Part shown: piece by piece, positions 5,366 through 59,756 of the stretch
How positions within the stretch are numbered: the stretch's first letter is position 1
Layout: the number at the start of each line of letters is the position of its first letter
Assembly: GCA_020638695.1 (NCBI GenBank)
Contig: JACKIB010000004.1
Span: forward strand, 136,631-200,630
From: Planctomycetota bacterium
Lineage (GTDB): Bacteria; Planctomycetota; UBA1135; UBA2386
DNA length: 64,000 nt
Direction of reading: 5' to 3'
Notes under the pieces: generated by a model
The model's database searches: none
Told to the model about the DNA's origin: nothing
What the model saw: the letters and a program-made list of their open reading frames with translations, nothing else
Translations under genes and position numbers: made by a program

Positions 5366-6454
5366 ATGGACTCGGACTTCGAAGCGTTTCGCCGCGAACG
5401 CAACTTGCGTCGACGGCAGTCAATTACCACCGAGCGGCCACTCGGCCACAACGAGGTCTGGGAGGCACTCGAGGCCAAGGAGGCGGATGACCTCCGCGAC
5501 CAGGTGATCGACGCGGAGGTGGACGACTTCTTCTGCGGCGCGACCAAGCTGGCCGCCAACCTGGTGAAGAAGGTCGCCGACAACCGCAAGCAGGAGATCT
5601 CGCAGAAGCTGCAGAGCGAGATGCAGGAATTCCTGTCCGAGTCGTTGCGCCACGCCAACAACTTGGTGCATTCGCTCGACAATGTGCACCCGAACCAGAC
5701 CGAGGCGACGGTCGAGCCGAGCCTGCGCAACCTCGACGGCCGCGAGATCGACAGCTTCCGCGCCGAGGGAACCGCGACGCTGGGCGACAAGCACCTCGGG
5801 CAGGGCCTGTTCACCGAGCCGGCGCCCGGCCCGGCGCCGGCCGGACGAGAGGCGCCGCCGTCGTTGGGTGCCGAGCAGGACGAGGACCCGATCAACGGTC
5901 AGCGGCTGAGTCTGCGCGCCGGCGAGCTCGAGCTCGCCTTCGCGCCGTCCGGCGATCTGCCGTTCGAAGCCGACCCGTTCTCGGTCGGCCTGCCGAACAG
6001 CGCCGCGATCCAGCGCCCCGGGGCCTCGGCGGTGCCGCCGACCCTCTCCGGGATCTACCGCGCTGCGGCGATGCCCGAGGACCACTTGCCGTTGGCGGCC
6101 TTGTACGGTGGGCACGGCGCCCCCGTGGCAGAGCCGCCGGCGAGCGACTCGTCGTTCGGCATTCCGGTCAGCAACGACAACATGCGGATCCGCGAGGACG
6201 CGAACCACGCCGATGCGTCGGGCTCGTCGTTCGGGATCCCGGCGCTGCGCAGTGGCGGCCCCCCGGTCGAGGAGCCGGCGGCGGTGGAAGAAGCGCCCGC
6301 GCCCGCGCCGGTGTCGAGCCTCGATGCGTCGCCGGAGGGCAGCACCAACCAGCGGATCCGTGACGCACTGCTGTTGCTGGTGAAGCAGGGCGTGATGACC
6401 AAGGACCAGGCGCGGGCAGCGTACTTGCAGCAGATGCAGCAGCCGCGGGGGTGA
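5366..6454 (+). CDS. Hypothetical acidic/Pro-rich protein
   Basis: 362-codon ORF starting at ATG. It has a helical acidic N-terminal third, a low-complexity Pro/Ala/Gly region with a repeated SSFGIP motif, and a conserved-looking C-terminal helix. No family recognised. Confidence 0.5.
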   Translation: MDSDFEAFRRERNLRRRQSITTERPLGHNEVWEALEAKEADDLRDQVIDAEVDDFFCGATKLAANLVKKVADNRKQEISQKLQSEMQEFLSESLRHANNLVHSLDNVHPNQTEATVEPSLRNLDGREIDSFRAEGTATLGDKHLGQGLFTEPAPGPAPAGREAPPSLGAEQDEDPINGQRLSLRAGELELAFAPSGDLPFEADPFSVGLPNSAAIQRPGASAVPPTLSGIYRAAAMPEDHLPLAALYGGHGAPVAEPPASDSSFGIPVSNDNMRIREDANHADASGSSFGIPALRSGGPPVEEPAAVEEAPAPAPVSSLDASPEGSTNQRIRDALLLLVKQGVMTKDQARAAYLQQMQQPRG

Positions 6455-6464
6455 CCCGCGCCGT

Positions 6465-6609
6465 GAGATCGTGCAGGGTTGTTGCTGGCGGGAAGAACGG
6501 CAGGTTCTGCCCGAGGCGGGGTGCTCCCGTCGAGGGGCAGTTTCTGACGTTCGACGAAGCCAGCAACGAACTCGCGCGATCGCAGCAGCTCGGTGGTGAA
6601 TAGTCTGGG
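6465..6609 (+). mobile_element. Truncated copy of short repeat element X (left end missing)
   Basis: About 145 bp alignable by eye to elements X1/X2 at 57338-57511 and 57680-57853 (GAGATCGTGCA.GGTTGTTGCTGGC...GTTCTGACGTTCGACGAAGCCAGCA...CGCAGCAGCTCGGT..TGAATAGTC). It lacks the left inverted repeat. Confidence 0.6.
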
Positions 6610-6613
6610 CGAG

Positions 6614-6771
6614 TGCCCCGCGTCCGGAGTTCGCAGCACAAGTGCCCGGCCATTCGATCCGCTCGCGGCGTCGCAGCTCCTCAGCTTGTCCACCAAGCCG
6701 TGTCGTCGCAGCTCCTTGCGCGCGAACCGCATGACTCGACGACTCATGCAACGAACTTCGGACACACCCCA
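6614..6771 (+). mobile_element. Short repeat element Y (full-length copy with imperfect terminal inverted repeats)
   Basis: The first ~125 bp are repeated at 35801-35925. The ends TGCCCCGCGTCCGGAGTTCG and CGAACTTCGGACACACCCCA are about 14/20 complementary. The right end abuts CTAG 6772-6775. Confidence 0.55.
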
Positions 6772-32162: not shown

Positions 32163-32237
32163 GGCCCCGTCGCCGTCGGCATCGGTCCGGGCTCGCTTCG
32201 CTCGGCTAGAGCGACCGATGCCGACGGCGACGGGGCC
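32163..32237. repeat. Hairpin A, copy 2
   Basis: Identical arms and loop to copy 1. Confidence 0.9.
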
Positions 32238-32387
32238 GCGGGAGAGCGGGTGGGGTCTGGGGGTGGAAGGCCGTGCGATCTGATTGAGCACTGACCGGAT
32301 CGTGTTGCGGTGGCGAGTGGTGATGCCGGAGGTGATCGATCGACGATTCACACTCGAGTAGATCGGCTCGATGCGGCTGGGCCCGCA

Positions 32388-32456
32388 TTACATGTGAAAA
32401 CATTGAAGCGTGACTTGACTTGTCGTGACTTTGTTCGTAGAACTATGCTCTAACAA
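32388..32456 (+). promoter_or_regulatory. AT-rich island upstream of the intact RAYT gene (putative promoter/operator); present in all three units
   Basis: The only clearly AT-rich ~70 bp in the window. TTGACT (32415-32420) is followed by 17 nt, then TAGAAC/TATGCT, and then AAGGGTAGGG before ATG 32467. Contains GTGACTT direct repeats. Confidence 0.3.
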
Positions 32457-32466
32457 GGGTAGGGTG

Positions 32467-33150
32467 ATGCGGATGAAGCGATCGAAGGACGACGCGGGCC
32501 TGCTGCCGTTCCCTCGCATGAACTGGGGAGGTCGGCGCAAGGGAGCGGGGCGCAAGCCGAAGGGCGACAAGGCCGGGGTATCGCATCGAAGTCGTGCGGC
32601 GTTGGCCTCGCGCTTTCCGGTGCACGTGACGACGCGGTTGGTGCGCGGGCTTCCGTCGCTGCGGAGCCAGGGCGTGTACGCGGTGCTGCTCGCGGCGTTT
32701 GCGAAGGGCTGCGAAGGCAACGGCTTTCGCCTGGTGCACTACTCCGTGCAGGGCAACCACCTGCACATGATCGTCGAGGCGAACGACCGCTCGTGCTTGT
32801 CGCGCGGCATGCAGGGGTTGTTGGTTCGCATCGCTCGGGCCTTGAACCGGCTGTGGCGTCGCGTAGGCAAGGTGTTCGCCGACCGCTACCACGACCACAT
32901 CCTCCGCACGCCTCGCGAAGTGCGCCACGCGCTGGCCTACGTGCTCAACAACGCCCGCCGCCACGGCGTGCGGTTGGCACAGGAGATCGACTGGTTCACC
33001 TCGGGATGCTGGTTCGACGGTTGGCGCGAGAAGCTGACGAGCAAGCTGCCCTCAGGCCTCACCAAACCGGTCGCACGCGCCCGCAACTGGCTGCTGAACA
33101 TCGGCTGGCGCCGACACGGCCCGATCGATCACCACGAGGTCCCCGGCTGA
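32467..33150 (+). CDS. REP-associated tyrosine transposase-like protein (IS200/IS605 Y1 HUH family), intact copy, 227 aa
   Basis: HUH motif in VQGNHLHMIVEA (CAC CTG CAC at 32758-32766). Catalytic-Tyr helix HALAYVLNNARRHG (TAC 32938-32940). A basic N-terminus, and flanked by hairpins A2 and B2. Confidence 0.8.
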   Translation: MRMKRSKDDAGLLPFPRMNWGGRRKGAGRKPKGDKAGVSHRSRAALASRFPVHVTTRLVRGLPSLRSQGVYAVLLAAFAKGCEGNGFRLVHYSVQGNHLHMIVEANDRSCLSRGMQGLLVRIARALNRLWRRVGKVFADRYHDHILRTPREVRHALAYVLNNARRHGVRLAQEIDWFTSGCWFDGWREKLTSKLPSGLTKPVARARNWLLNIGWRRHGPIDHHEVPG

Positions 33151-33202
33151 AGACCACCATCGCACTTCCACCCTCCTAGGACTCCACCCACTCCCCTCGC
33201 GG

Positions 33203-33261
33203 CCCCGTCGGCATCGGCTTCGGTCGCAACTTGCCTTGGGCCGAAGCCGATGCCGACGGGG
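33203..33261. repeat. Hairpin B, copy 2
   Basis: Identical to copy 1. Confidence 0.9.
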
Positions 33262-33537: not shown

Positions 33538-33612
33538 GGCCCCGTCGCCGTCGGCATCGGTCCGGGCTCGCTTCGCTCGGCTAGAGCGACCGATGCCGAC
33601 GGCGACAGGGCC
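33538..33612. repeat. Hairpin A, copy 3 (one mismatch)
   Basis: Same as copies 1 and 2, except the right arm reads GACAGGGCC instead of GACGGGGCC. Confidence 0.85.
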
Positions 33613-33840
33613 GCGGAGAGCAGGAGGGGTCTGGGGGTGGAAGGCCGTGCGATCTGATTGAGCACTGACCGGATCGTGTTGCGGTGGCGAGTGGTGATGC
33701 CGGAGGTGATCGATCGACGATTCACACTCGAGTAGATCGGCTCGATGCGGCTGGGCCCGCATTACATGTGAAAACATTGAAGCGTGACTTGACTTGTCGT
33801 GACTTTGTTCGTAGAACTATGCTCTAACAAAGGTAGGGTG

Positions 33841-34524
33841 ATGCGGATGAAGCGATCGAAGGACGACACGGGCCTGCTGCCGTTCCCTCGCATGAACTGG
33901 GGAGGTCGGCGCAAGGGAGCGGGGCGCAAGCCGAAGGGTGACAAGGCCGGCGTATCGCATCGAAGTCGTGCGGCGTTGGCCTCGCGGTTTCCGGTGCACG
34001 TGACGACGCGGTTGGTGCGCGGGCTTCCGTCGCTGCGGAGCCAGGGCGTGTACGCGGTGCTGCTCGCGGCGTTTGCGAAGGGCTGCGAAGGCAACGGCTT
34101 TCGCCTGGTGCACTACTCCGTGCAGGGCAACCACCTGCACATGATCGTCGAGGCGAACGACCGCTCGTGCTTGTCGCGCGGCATGCAGGGATTGTTGGTC
34201 CGCATCGCTCGGGCCTTGAACCGGCTGTGGCGTCGCGTAGGCAAGGTCTTCGCCGACCGCTACCACGACCACATCCTCCGCACGCCTCGCTAAGTGCGCC
34301 ACGCGCTGGCCTACGTGCTCAACAACGCTCGCCGCCACGGCGTGCGGTTGGCACAGGAGATCGACTGGTTCACCTCGGGATGCTGGTTCGACGGTTGGCG
34401 CGAGAAGCTGACGAGCAAGCTGCCCTCAGGCCTCACCAAACCGGTCGCACGCGCCCGCAACTGGCTGCTGAACATCGGCTGGCGCAGGCACGGCCTGATC
34501 GATCACCACGAGGTCCCCGGCTGA
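33841..34524 (+). pseudogene. RAYT-type transposase, copy 3, with a premature stop (GAA to TAA at 34291-34293)
   Basis: Collinear with copy 2 for all 684 nt. The codon that is GAA (Glu) in copies 1 and 2 is TAA here, 14 codons upstream of the catalytic Tyr. Confidence 0.85.
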
Positions 34525-34576
34525 AGACCACCTTCGCACTTCCACCCTCCTAGGACTCCACCCACTCCCCTCGCGG

Positions 34577-34635
34577 CCCCGTCGGCATCGGCTTCGGTCG
34601 CAACTTGCCTTGGGCCGAAGCCGATGCCGACGGGG
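34577..34635. repeat. Hairpin B, copy 3
   Basis: Identical to copy 1. Confidence 0.9.
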
Positions 34636-35800: not shown

Positions 35801-35925
35801 TGCCCCGCGTCCGGAGTTCGCAGCACATGTACCCGGCCATTCGATCCGCTCGCTGCGTTGCTGCTCCTCAGCTTGTCCACCAACAAGCCGTGTCGTCGCA
35901 GCGCCTTGCGCGCGAATCGACTGAC
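35801..35925 (+). mobile_element. Repeat element Y, right-truncated copy
   Basis: About 125 bp alignable to 6614-6740. It starts immediately after CTAG 35797-35800, which contains the PfkB-kinase stop codon. Confidence 0.55.
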
Positions 35926-36066
35926 GCAGCCACATTTGCTCACGCCACTCGCCTGGCCGCGCCAGCTCTCGCGCGATCTGCTGACGTGCTCGATTGCGTG
36001 CGAGGCGCGGTGACGTAGCACGCTTGCCGCGCCGCGGTGTGGCGGTTACGTTGCTGCGTCCCCCCG

Positions 36067-55969: not shown

Positions 55970-57337
55970 GTGCGCGACTTCGTCGTCCTCGGGATCGTCC
56001 TGCTGTCGTTGCCGACGGTGTTCCGCCGGCCGTTCGTCGGCCTGATCCTGTTCTCGTGGCTGGCCTACATGCGCCCGCAGGACCTGTGTTGGGGCTTCGC
56101 CCGCGACATGCGGTTCAGCTTCTACGTGGCGGTCACCATGGTGATCGGGTGGTACGTCAACGATGCGCACAAGCGGCGCTTCTTCACCCCCGACCCGCGG
56201 ATGTACTTGATGCTGACGCTGGGGTTGCTGATCACCGTCAGCCTGGCGTTTGCCTCGCAGTACGATCCGCTCACCGGGCGCTACTACTTTGAGTTCCTGA
56301 AGATCTTGGCGATCGCGATCTTCACCATCGGCCAGGTCGACAGCCGCAAGCGCCTGCGTGCGCTGCTGTGGACCATCGCGTTCTCGCTCGGGTTCTACTC
56401 GGTGAAGAATGGTCTGGTCGGGATCGCCCGCGGCGGGTCGACCATCCTCCGCGGTCCGGGTGGCATGCTGGAGGACAACAACGACTTCGCCCTGGCGTTG
56501 GTGATGAACATCCCGCTGCTCTACTACCTGGGGCAGCTGGCGAACGACAAGCGGATCCGCATGGTCACGCTCGCCGCGATCATGCTCACCGCCGTGACCG
56601 TGCTGCTGACCCACTCGCGCGGCGGGTTCCTGGCGATGAACTCGGTGTTCTTGTGGATCTCGTGGCGCTCCGGAAAGCTGCTGCGCGCCCTCGTGGTGCT
56701 CGGGGTCCTGGCGGTGCTGTTCTTCGCCTTTGCGCCGGAGCACGTCGTCGAGCGGATCGCCAGTATCGGCAAGGGTCGTGAGGACGACTCGGCGGCCTCG
56801 CGCCTCGACTCGTGGATGGTCGCGCTGCGGATGATCGCCGCCAACCCGATATGGGGGGTCGGGCTGCGCAACTTCGTGATCTCCTCACCGGACTTCGGAG
56901 CGGTGATGGGTCCGGACCGGATCATGCACGTGGCGCACAACTCCTATCTGCAGATCGCTGCGGAGGGCGGCCTGATCGCCTTCATGGTCTACCTGGGACT
57001 GCTGGCCTCGTCGTTCACCGCCGGCTGGTTCCTCCGGCGGGTCGGGCGTTCGCGCCCCGACCTGGCCGACTTCGGGGTCTACGGGCGGATGTTCGAAGCC
57101 ACCATGCTCGGCTTCATGGTCGGCGGCATGTTCCTCAACCGCGGCCACTTCGACCTCGTGTACCACGTGTTCGGCATCATCGGTGCCGCTGTATTGGTGG
57201 CGCAGCGCGAGCTGCGCCAAGCCAGCGTGCCGCAGGCCGACGGCGCGCATCCGGTTCGGCACGGCCGCCAGGCGGTCACGGTGCGCTGGCGATCCCCCGT
57301 CGACCACTTGGCTACAGCCCGTTGGGAGCGCGGCTAG
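55970..57337 (+). CDS. O-antigen ligase-like (Wzy_C) polytopic membrane protein
   Basis: About 10-12 TM helices and LLTHSRGGFLAM (Wzy_C signature), with GVGLRNF nearby. The stop TAG 57335-57337 lies in a CTAG abutting element X1. Confidence 0.8.
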   Translation: MRDFVVLGIVLLSLPTVFRRPFVGLILFSWLAYMRPQDLCWGFARDMRFSFYVAVTMVIGWYVNDAHKRRFFTPDPRMYLMLTLGLLITVSLAFASQYDPLTGRYYFEFLKILAIAIFTIGQVDSRKRLRALLWTIAFSLGFYSVKNGLVGIARGGSTILRGPGGMLEDNNDFALALVMNIPLLYYLGQLANDKRIRMVTLAAIMLTAVTVLLTHSRGGFLAMNSVFLWISWRSGKLLRALVVLGVLAVLFFAFAPEHVVERIASIGKGREDDSAASRLDSWMVALRMIAANPIWGVGLRNFVISSPDFGAVMGPDRIMHVAHNSYLQIAAEGGLIAFMVYLGLLASSFTAGWFLRRVGRSRPDLADFGVYGRMFEATMLGFMVGGMFLNRGHFDLVYHVFGIIGAAVLVAQRELRQASVPQADGAHPVRHGRQAVTVRWRSPVDHLATARWERG

Positions 57338-57511
57338 CCCGGACGATTCATGAGCAGCGTCGCGAGATCGTGCAAGGTTGTTGCTGGCAAGGAGAACGGC
57401 AGGTTCTGCCCGGAGGCGGGGTGCCTCCCCGTCGAGGAGCAGGTTCTGACGTTCGACGAAGCCAGCAGCGACCTTGCGCGATCGCAGCAGCTCGGTCATG
57501 AATAGTCCGGG
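57338..57511 (+). mobile_element. MITE-like element X1 (174 bp, 16-bp terminal inverted repeats, flanked by CTAG)
   Basis: Ends CCCGGACGATTCATGA / TCATGAATAGTCCGGG are 15/16 complementary. CTAG lies at 57334-57337 and 57512-57515. No ORF of transposase size. Confidence 0.7.
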
Positions 57512-57515
57512 CTAG

Positions 57516-57675
57516 GAGTCTGCGCCACAGAATGACAACCCATGAGATCCGCGCCTTCCAGCACCTGTCACCCCCCGAAATCCTCGCCGAATCCACCAAT
57601 TCGGCTGTGTTTTCGGGCGGCGACCTGCGCCGAAATCCACGAACCTCCTGAGTCACCCTTCTGTGGCGCAGACTC
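57516..57675 (+). mobile_element. MITE-like element Z (160 bp, 17-bp perfect terminal inverted repeats, flanked by CTAG)
   Basis: GAGTCTGCGCCACAGAA ... TTCTGTGGCGCAGACTC are exact reverse complements. CTAG lies at 57512-57515 and 57676-57679. Confidence 0.7.
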
Positions 57676-57679
57676 CTAG

Positions 57680-57853
57680 CCCGGACTTTTCATGAGCAGC
57701 GTCGCGAGATCGTGCAAGGTTGTTGCGGGCAGGGAGAACGGCAGGTTCTGCCCGGAGGCGGCGTGCACCCCCGCCGAGGAGCGGGTTCTGACGTTCGACG
57801 AAGCCAGCAGCGATCTTGCGCGAGCGCAGCAGCTCGGTCATGCATAGTCCGGG
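57680..57853 (+). mobile_element. MITE-like element X2 (174 bp)
   Basis: Collinear with X1, with about a dozen substitutions. Flanked by CTAG 57676-57679 and TTAG 57854-57857. Confidence 0.7.
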
Positions 57854-57890
57854 TTAGGTCGGGCCGCCCCGGAAGTCGAGATAGCATCGG

Positions 57891-59756
57891 ATGTGCGGGA
57901 TCAACGGCATCTTCTGTCTGCAGCGTACCGCACCAGTCGAACGCGACCTGGTCGTCGCGATGTCCGACACCCTGCGTCACCGTGGACCGGACGGCGAGGG
58001 CCACCGCGTCGCGGCCGGCTACGGGCTAGGGCACCGGCGCCTGGCGATCGTCGACTTGGTTTCCGGGGCGCAGCCGATGGGCGACGCCGCGGGTGAGGTC
58101 TGGGTCACCTTCAACGGCGAGATCTACAACCACGAGGAGCTGCGCCGCGAGTTGGAGGCCGCGGGTCACCGGTTCCGCACCCGCTCCGACACCGAGGTGT
58201 TGGTGTACGGCTACCGCGAGTGGGGGACCGCGCTGGCCAGTCGGCTGTTCGGGATGTTCGCATTCGCGATCGTCGACCAGCGCGACCACTCGCTCTACCT
58301 GGCCCGCGACCGGATGGGGCAGAAGCCGCTGTACTGGATGCAGCACGCCGGTCAGGTGCTGTTCGCCTCGGAGATCAAGGCGCTGCTCGCGGTGCCCGGG
58401 GTGCCGCGCCGACTCGACCCGGTGGCGCTCGGCGAGTACCTGTGCCTGAGCTACGTGCCGGATCCGCGGAGCATCTTCGCGGACGTCCACAAGTTGCCGC
58501 CCGCGACCTGGATGTTGGTCCGTGACGGACGCTTCGAGAGCAGAGAATACTGGTCTCCCCAGCTCCGCGCCGGTGCATCCGATGGCACCACGCCGAGTCT
58601 TCACGATCAGCAGCAGGAGCTGCTCGATCGGCTCGATGTGGCAGTGCGCCGCCGGCTGATGTCCGACGTGCCGCTCGGTGCGTTCCTGTCGGGTGGGGTG
58701 GACAGCTTCGCGGTGGTCGACAGCATGAGCCGGGTCGGCCCGGGCGAGGTGCTGGCCTGCACGGTCGGGTTCGACGTGCCCGAATACGACGAACGCGTGT
58801 TCGCTCGCCAGGCGGCGCAGGCCTGTCGCGCGCACCTGTTCGAGGATGTGCTGAAGGTCGAGGACATGCTCGATCTCGACTGGTTCACCGAAGTGTTCGA
58901 CGAGCCGTTCGCCGACGCCTCGGCGATTCCGACCTACCACGTCAGCCGCATCGCCCGTAGCCACGTCACGGTGGCGCTGTCCGGCGACGGTGGTGACGAG
59001 AACTTCGCCGGGTATCGCCGCTACAAGTTCGACGCCGAGGAGAACCGCCTGCGCCGCCTACTGCCCGGAGCCGCCTGGCGCGGCCTCGGTGCGCTGTACC
59101 CCAAGCTCGACTTCCTGCCCCGCTGGTTGCGCTACAAGCGCACCCTGCAGAATCTCGGCTGTTCGCCCGACGAGGCGTACGCTCGGTCGGTGAGCGCAGC
59201 GTTGCCCGAGGACGTGTTGCCGCTGCTCCGTCCGGCGTGGCGGGCCGACGATCCGCTCGGGGCAGTGCGCGCCGCCCACCGTGAGGCCGAGGGTTGCCAT
59301 CCGCTGCAGCGCTGTGCGCTCGCCGACCGCCGCACGACCTTGCCCGGCGACATCTTGACGAAGGTGGACCGCGCCTCGATGGCGGTGTCGCTGGAGGTTC
59401 GCTCGCCGTTCCTCGACCACCAACTGGTCGAGTTCGCCGCCGATCTGAGTTACGACCGCAAGCTGCTCGATGGCGCCAGCAAGGGTTTTCTGAAGGAGGC
59501 GCTGGTCGGTCGACTCGGTCGTCAGGCGCTCAACCGGCCCAAGCGCGGTTTCGCGGTGCCGCTGGCGTTGTGGATGCGCGGTAGCCTCGGCGATGCGCTC
59601 GGGGCGGCACTCGCCGACGGGCCGTTGGGACAGTTGCTGGAAGTCGAACGCGCTCGGCGTTTGCTGGACGAACACCGCCGCGGTGCCCGCGACCGCAGCC
59701 GCATCCTCTGGGCGCTGCTGGTCCTGCACCGCTTCCTCAACAGGTGGGCCGGGTGA
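57891..59756 (+). CDS. asnB: Asparagine synthase (glutamine-hydrolysing) family amidotransferase, EPS-locus type
   Basis: MCGINGIF N-terminal nucleophile Cys, RGPDGEG, and the PP-loop SGGVDS (LGAFLSGGVDSFAV). 621 aa. Confidence 0.9.
   Translation: MCGINGIFCLQRTAPVERDLVVAMSDTLRHRGPDGEGHRVAAGYGLGHRRLAIVDLVSGAQPMGDAAGEVWVTFNGEIYNHEELRRELEAAGHRFRTRSDTEVLVYGYREWGTALASRLFGMFAFAIVDQRDHSLYLARDRMGQKPLYWMQHAGQVLFASEIKALLAVPGVPRRLDPVALGEYLCLSYVPDPRSIFADVHKLPPATWMLVRDGRFESREYWSPQLRAGASDGTTPSLHDQQQELLDRLDVAVRRRLMSDVPLGAFLSGGVDSFAVVDSMSRVGPGEVLACTVGFDVPEYDERVFARQAAQACRAHLFEDVLKVEDMLDLDWFTEVFDEPFADASAIPTYHVSRIARSHVTVALSGDGGDENFAGYRRYKFDAEENRLRRLLPGAAWRGLGALYPKLDFLPRWLRYKRTLQNLGCSPDEAYARSVSAALPEDVLPLLRPAWRADDPLGAVRAAHREAEGCHPLQRCALADRRTTLPGDILTKVDRASMAVSLEVRSPFLDHQLVEFAADLSYDRKLLDGASKGFLKEALVGRLGRQALNRPKRGFAVPLALWMRGSLGDALGAALADGPLGQLLEVERARRLLDEHRRGARDRSRILWALLVLHRFLNRWAG

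Follow-up and report, generated by a model that had tools for sequence, protein, structure and literature searches.

We analyzed a 64-kb window of contig JACKIB010000004.1 (contig C34), from a metagenome-assembled genome (MAG) of a Planctomycetota bacterium (GCA_020638695.1; genome G000), and in particular three short repeats, X1, Z and X2, that lie end to end between two genes of an exosortase-type exopolysaccharide (EPS) locus. The window is the whole stretch of DNA analyzed, its numbering is used for all coordinates that carry no contig name, and X and Z serve as family names. Upstream of the repeats lies a gene for an O-antigen-ligase-like protein of the Wzy_C/DUF5935 type (55970 to 57337, plus strand, from the list of open reading frames; Pfam PF04932, 6e-23, and PF19358, 1e-19), whose TAG stop codon at 57335 to 57337 falls within a CTAG. 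Downstream lies asnB, encoding a glutamine-hydrolysing asparagine synthase of the exosortase-locus type (57891 to 59756, plus strand; PF00733, 3e-82, and PF13537), and 553 nt separate the two genes. The sequence from 57334 to 57857 consists of CTAG, X1, CTAG, Z, CTAG, X2 and TTAG, in that order.

X1 (57338 to 57511, plus strand) is 174 bp long and carries IS1380-type terminal inverted repeats (CCCGGAC.ATTCATGA) that match at 15 of 16 positions, CCCGGACGATTCATGA versus CCCGGACTATTCATGA. The first CTAG (57334 to 57337) forms the left duplication of X1, and the next (57512 to 57515) is common to X1 and Z. Z (57516 to 57675, plus strand) measures 160 bp and has perfect IS1182-type terminal repeats, GAGTCTGCGCCACAGAA (17/17); a further CTAG (57676 to 57679) is common to Z and X2. 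X2 (57680 to 57853, plus strand) is a second 174-bp member of family X, with 12 positions differing from X1, and is followed by TTAG (57854 to 57857), the right-hand target copy of X2, which may be a decayed CTAG. When the array was taken out in silico, an original spacer of 33 nt remained (57858 to 57890, plus strand), and the reconstructed junction without the array reads ggcTAG, then the 33 nt GTCGGGCC...GCATCGG, then the ATG of asnB. This layout, with its coordinates, terminal repeat counts and X1/X2 differences, had been described in an earlier note on the same DNA, and all of it held on recounting.

Transposase coding sequence was found in none of X1, Z and X2 (174 and 160 bp), as the earlier note had said. 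In the 51-codon frame of X, 50 distinct copies showed 111, 103 and 127 differences at codon positions 1, 2 and 3, respectively, and this lack of codon periodicity ruled out X as a small protein gene; the same copies gave no sign of selection on an X-encoded peptide. One frame of X is free of stop codons in both orientations in 47 of the 50 copies, and read-through in that frame could be possible where X inserts. All three elements fold into hairpins over their whole length, with predicted energies of -118 kcal/mol for X1, -70 for Z and -100 for X2 and z-scores of -7.5 to -11 (X1, -11; Z, -8.8). An Rfam search over 56.8 to 58.4 kb returned one chance miRNA match (E = 0.19) and nothing else.

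The genome assembly amounts to 5.69 Mb in 69 contigs (73% complete, N50 of 230 kb, no Ns, 68.7% G+C). BLAST searches of X and Z against it gave hundreds of matches, and annotation based on consensus sequences identified 267 matches to family X (93 full-length) and 132 to family Z (74 full-length). Three further CTAG-flanked families were found: W, a 161-bp element (117 matches, 60 full-length); V, a sister of W that is homologous over the whole length and has different terminal octamers (TGCCCC.CGTC; 76 matches, 36 full-length); and N (5 matches, 3 full-length). The five families together make up 73 kb, or 1.3% of the assembly, and all of them are noncoding, whole-length hairpins of 130 to 174 bp. 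Being short and noncoding, with terminal inverted repeats, target duplications and many dispersed copies, X and Z have the sequence characters expected of bacterial MITEs (miniature inverted-repeat transposable elements). The suggestion that they are nonautonomous elements agrees with their multicopy, CTAG-flanked state, and the BLASTN comparison proposed alongside it showed that neither family is unique to this locus.

Insertion in these families appears to be directed at CTAG. The flanks of young copies, defined as those with at least 95% identity to the consensus (n = 160, five families), match CTAG at 91 to 99% at each of the four positions on either side. The word is depleted in the genome, with 1,347 sites and an observed/expected ratio of 0.23, and 328 of these sites (24%) touch an element end. 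In old copies CTAG has decayed mostly at the central TA, giving CCAG or CTGG; the frequency of such flanks is explained by a bias from AT to GC, about 3:1 per site, in the decay of old copies. The same drift toward C and G is seen within the elements, A/T-to-G/C changes in old X and Z copies being about three times as common per site as the reverse.

Elements also abut one another throughout the genome. At 100 junctions two elements are separated by exactly 4 nt, which is CTAG in most cases; all family combinations are represented, and 32 of the junctions join X to Z or Z to X via CTAG. When elements no more than 30 nt apart were counted as arrays, there were 284 singles, 90 pairs, 28 triples, 11 quadruples and 1 quintet, so that X1-Z-X2 is one of 40 arrays of at least three elements. 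Such arrays are expected, since each insertion leaves a CTAG on both sides and free CTAGs are few: 34% of the ends of complete elements abut another element, a figure comparable to the proportion of CTAG sites flanking elements (24%). The earlier reading of the shared tetranucleotides as serial insertion into a duplicated CTAG is thus borne out well beyond this locus, by the 100 junctions and the 40 arrays.

The position of the array directly behind a stop codon also recurs. A crude gene-end test put the number of genes ending in C-TAG at only about 197, and in about 30% of these an element array follows immediately on the stop. In the same test the base before a TAG stop was G in 85% of cases, which points to avoidance of CTAG. 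Of the 237 outer CTAGs of arrays, 60 contain the TAG stop of a gene that is read toward the array, versus 134 of 1,012 for free CTAGs. Insertion at a stop-codon CTAG does no harm to the protein encoded upstream, since the stop is recreated by the duplication.

Taken together, these observations suggest, with a probability that we put at roughly 0.88, that X1, Z and X2 are MITEs inserted serially into one CTAG overlapping the stop codon of the Wzy_C-type gene. Since X and Z encode no protein, a transposase of the parent type would have to act in trans, and we infer that each family was moved by the DDE transposase of its respective parent type. The target of these transposases would be CTAG, a rare palindrome (for the X type, in a looser sense, YTAR), cleaved with a stagger of 4 bases, and after repair the inserted copy would have a CTAG on both sides. 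An element arriving later would often use a CTAG created by a previous insertion and so abut its neighbor exactly; frequent exact abutment follows from there being only 1,347 CTAGs, about a quarter of them flanking elements. X2 probably arrived first and is the oldest, because it differs from the family consensus at 11 positions and has a TTAG at its right flank. X1 and Z, with two differences each, would have followed recently, and Z very recently, as it is identical to 14 other copies. The upstream frame and stop would remain untouched, the stop surviving because each target duplication rebuilds C-TAG, and a junction of 33 nt would have expanded to 553 nt of hairpin-forming DNA before asnB.

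Comparison with relatives supports insertion. An AsnB orthologue is present in 77 of 91 genomes of the bacterial family. At 12 orthologous loci (11 genera and a Planctomycetota MAG, which holds the nearest named AsnB/Wzy pair) the gap between the wzy-type gene and asnB ranges from -1 to 73 nt. None of these 12 loci has room for an X/Z-like array, and no BLAST match to X or Z was found at the locus in relatives. The possibility raised beforehand that relatives carry the same sequence as a conserved regulatory region can thus be set aside in favor of an insertion. The relatives are not close ones: an AsnB search of genome contigs found no close relative (best match, 57%), and the nearest genome belongs to another genus.

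The host could nevertheless have put such an insertion to use: it might act as an attenuator, be a site of processing by RNase III or stabilize the mRNA, and in this way uncouple asnB from the genes upstream. The rod-like hairpins of -70 to -118 kcal/mol per element are compatible with such a role, as is one weak terminator-like hairpin on the sense strand at the apex of Z (57586 to 57615, plus strand; GCCGAAT-CCACCA-ATTCGGC, i.e., GCCGAATCCACCAATTCGGC, then TGTGTTTTCG). The core of Z is 76 to 84% identical across genera though the terminal repeats differ there, and the tight coupling seen in relatives, where the gap is no more than 15 nt in 9 of 12 loci, has been lost here. However, none of the 12 orthologous loci contains the array, the center of Z decays as fast as its arms within the genome, no sigma-70-like promoter was found in the array, and X1 and Z arrived too recently for any selection to show. 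The idea that Z is a selected terminator was rejected, since copies abutting a stop codon show no orientation bias relative to the gene (8 same, 11 opposite) and the center is not conserved within the genome. We therefore regard co-option as quite improbable. Independently of any selected role, the lost coupling and 524 nt of rod-like RNA structure may lower or uncouple asnB expression. In an RNA run whose contigs end inside the repeats, depth on the two flanking genes was low and similar, at 2.8 and about 4.

The parent types of X and Z were identified in related genomes. The X-type end, CTAG followed by CC[CT]GGACTATTCA[TC]GA, bounds a 1,677-bp insertion sequence (IS) present in about 32 copies in the related genome G043. 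This IS encodes one DDE transposase of 483 aa that scores 356 bits with the IS1380-family model NF033539 (cut-off, 180 bits) and 7e-119 with PF13701, and X has 16 to 17 of 18 terminal bases in common with it. IS1380-family ends begin with CC, as do those of X. X thus carries IS1380-family terminal repeats. Its likeness to the family, exemplified by IS1380 of Acetobacter and ISEcp1, lies in this intact relative with a single DDE transposase and 4-bp duplications; in contrast, X itself is a noncoding, 174-bp, whole-length hairpin with a target strongly biased to CTAG/YTAR, and no cognate transposase was seen in the same 73%-complete assembly. About 190 pairs of X-type ends occur in another related genome, G072.

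The Z-type end, CTAG followed by GAGTCTGC[GC]CCACGG, is present in 69 of the 91 genomes of the family. ISs of about 1.57 to 1.62 kb are bounded by it in the related genomes G019 and G043, the latter with about 40 copies, as well as in a JGI metagenome contig (L141), and their transposases of 436 to 443 aa score 353 to 383 bits with the IS1182-family model NF033551 (cut-off, 270 bits). Z matches the CTAG-flanked ISs of G019 and L141 at 17 of 17 terminal bases, and at 23 of 25 when compared with the transposase-proximal end, so that Z carries IS1182-family terminal repeats. A relic of such an IS is present in the genome under study (C7:27456-27700): CTAG and GAGTCTGCGCCACGGGA are followed by about 90 nt and then by the first 51 transposase codons, 78% identical to those of G019, before the relic is cut off beside another CTAG with an IS630-type end. 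Unlike these ISs, Z has an interior that forms a separate hairpin module, one that in other genera is also found together with another IS1182-like terminal repeat. At four loci (C1:242951, C4:105060, C4:143651 and C56:125318) a common flank, ...GGGCTGGGGCGAAGCCCCG followed by TTAG, precedes an older Z-like left end of the CACGGGATGA type; these may represent a further repeat family or a composite unit.

These parents bear on a second alternative, namely that X and Z derive from strict IS5 elements, or else from IS630/Tc1-mariner elements that duplicate TA only, in which case each element would be one base longer per end. IS5 elements reportedly target YTAR with a 4-bp duplication, and the X-type IS has the same target word and duplication length. 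However, the IS5 models of NCBIfam fall below their cut-off of 140 bits for the Z-parent transposases (best scores, 83 and 75 bits), and they gave no match at all to the X-parent transposase. Strict IS5 parentage was rejected on these grounds. The guess in the earlier note that the elements belong to the IS5 family was thus close for Z, the IS1182 family being IS5-related, and wrong for X. The search that it proposed for transposases with matching terminal repeats did recover parents, in relatives, and these are of the IS1380 and IS1182 families. Likewise, the 4-bp, CTAG-type duplication that it invoked is real, being seen for the IS1380-type IS of G043; its attribution to IS5 is not borne out.

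As to IS630, it is known to prefer TA within 5'-CTAG-3' (Tenzen & Ohtsubo 1991, as cited in PMC2170065). An intact, CTAG-flanked IS630-family IS with a 358-aa transposase (NF033545) lies on the same contig outside the window (C34:35753-36949), and its ends, TGGGGTGTGTC.GAAGTTC, are those of family W. This IS and the W and V MITEs share arrays with X and Z. Moreover, a constant CTAG target makes a 2-bp duplication indistinguishable from a 4-bp one: as long as the target is CTAG, a 4-bp duplication and one of TA plus a base look alike, and therefore the non-CTAG cases decide. One X-type IS copy in G043 is flanked by TTAG/TTAG, and another, nested within an IS1182-type copy in the same genome, is flanked by CTAA/CTAA. 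One X copy in the genome under study has TTAG/TTAG, and a Z-like sister-family MITE in G009, whose parent is a divergent IS1182/IS5-like IS in G019, has CTAA/CTAA. The outer bases are thus duplicated as well, whereas IS630 duplicates TA only, and the ends of X and Z are unlike those of the IS630 type and match IS1380 and IS1182 elements exactly over 16 to 25 nt. The flanks fit a 4-bp YTAR duplication with a strong CTAG preference, and an origin of X and Z from either IS5 or IS630 is very unlikely.

A third alternative, that X and Z are repetitive extragenic palindromic (REP)/REPIN-like hairpin repeats spread by Y1/HUH transposases resembling REP-associated tyrosine transposases (RAYTs), can be dismissed almost entirely: X and Z are indeed whole-length imperfect palindromes and the genome holds about 19 RAYT/IS200-like units of about 1 kb, two of them within the window, but the RAYT genes are bracketed by sequences (GCGACCGATGCCGACGGCGACGGGGCCGC) that bear no relation to X and Z, which have DDE-type IS terminal repeats and the direct target duplications that single-strand Y1 transposition does not make. 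The two RAYT units in the window, at 32210 to 33228 and 33585 to 34602, have inverted brackets of the GCGACCGATGCCGACGGCGACGGGGCCGC type; such units often form tandem pairs, and each unit has a CTAG at only one of its borders. Elsewhere in the window, an old X (6452 to 6609, 88% identity) adjoins an old W (6622 to 6771, 89%) that ends at CTAG 6772, and a young truncated V (35801 to 35940, 99%) starts at CTAG 35797.

Several observations count against serial insertion by parent-type transposases and have to be weighed with it. The 73%-complete assembly itself lacks an intact transposase of the IS1380 or IS1182 type with matching ends; tblastn with the transposases of relatives returned the 51-aa relic described above and homologues at 21% identity only. 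For Z, similarity to the IS beyond the 17- to 25-bp terminal repeats is not significant (best z = 3.4 in 1 of 10 tests), and descent of Z by internal deletion is therefore unsupported. All paired Z flanks are CTAG or decayed, so that the duplication length of Z is taken from the sister family. An empty-site allele of the locus in the same species was not found, the short-read contigs breaking in the repeats; one X-to-X joint that skips Z was seen in public runs, with a 36-nt side only and not assignable to the locus. Finally, the interior order X1-Z-X2 comes from the assembly alone.

On the last point, the assembly looks long-read-based, judging by its N50 of 230 kb, its lack of Ns and the identical 1.6-kb IS copies inside its contigs, and for the same reasons it is unlikely that the array arose by misassembly. 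Public runs containing the window sequence come from activated sludge and wastewater, and the two outer junctions of the array were seen independently in Logan contigs. The junction of the Wzy_C-type gene with X1 is spanned by a contig of a different study, and therefore X1 is not private to one sample.

Two other kinds of mobile DNA in the genome touch on the question of a parent. The DDE_Tnp_1 genes of the genome itself were considered and rejected as parents of X and Z. They belong to a 1,616-bp IS whose terminal repeats are CAATGCCGTTAGC and whose DDE_Tnp_1 frame spans 531 codons. This IS makes 9- to 10-bp duplications, shows no CTAG targeting and is unrelated to X and Z; five near-identical copies (C2:165800, C7:107207, C7:118309, C7:122512 and C34:28954) and some degenerate ones were found. 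The genome also contains no long elements with X or Z ends, except for X copies that carry a group II intron. The intron is 1,969 nt long at C34:250530-252498 (L135) and occurs also at C69:38023-39989, C65:5-1892 and C1:509360-510980; it matches Rfam RF02005 (160 bits) and RF00029 (48 bits) and encodes an RVT_1 reverse transcriptase with a YADD motif. In all three readable copies it sits at the same point in the X terminal repeat, between CCCGGACYATTC and ATGA, in either orientation of X, and therefore the MITE end is its homing site. A like case is RmInt2, a group II intron that homes to IS inverted repeats (PMC4615759).

The elements of different parentage have one further feature in common. 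Z, with IS1182-type ends, and W and V, with IS630-type ends, carry the same apical hairpin, with the loop CCACCA and the flanks CCTC...GTGT, on stems that differ from one another in a compensating manner. Within the genome 134 of 136 CCACCA hairpins lie in Z, W or V. A possible explanation is that in this bacterial family the IS1380, IS1182-like and IS630 transposase lineages, which are unrelated to one another, converged on the scarce CTAG, and that their MITEs share a hairpin chassis and are not simple deletion products of the ISs. We regard this as doubtful. If it were true, MITEs from different families of transposons would have exchanged a hairpin module, or selection would have acted on it in them, and the module could serve as an aid to transposition or have a role at the level of the host.

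In their size of 100 to 200 bp, noncoding nature, whole-length imperfect palindromes and tens to hundreds of copies, X and Z resemble the Correia elements of Neisseria and the ERIC/IRU elements of enterobacteria, which likewise often lie just after genes and are cotranscribed with them; unlike X and Z, those elements insert at TA. Correia elements are documented to influence transcription and processing by RNase III. MITEs with the ends of DDE-type ISs and hairpin-shaped MITEs such as Correia and ERIC are each already known, and the present case is a clear but ordinary instance of known transposon behavior. As regards annotation, the gap of 553 nt within this polysaccharide operon of the exosortase type is probably best read as recent mobile DNA and not as a regulatory region. 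More broadly, the array would be a clean example of a transposon pile-up at a rare target word, in which each insertion makes a new CTAG for the next, and its use may lie less in discovery than in offering a rule for recognizing such arrays.

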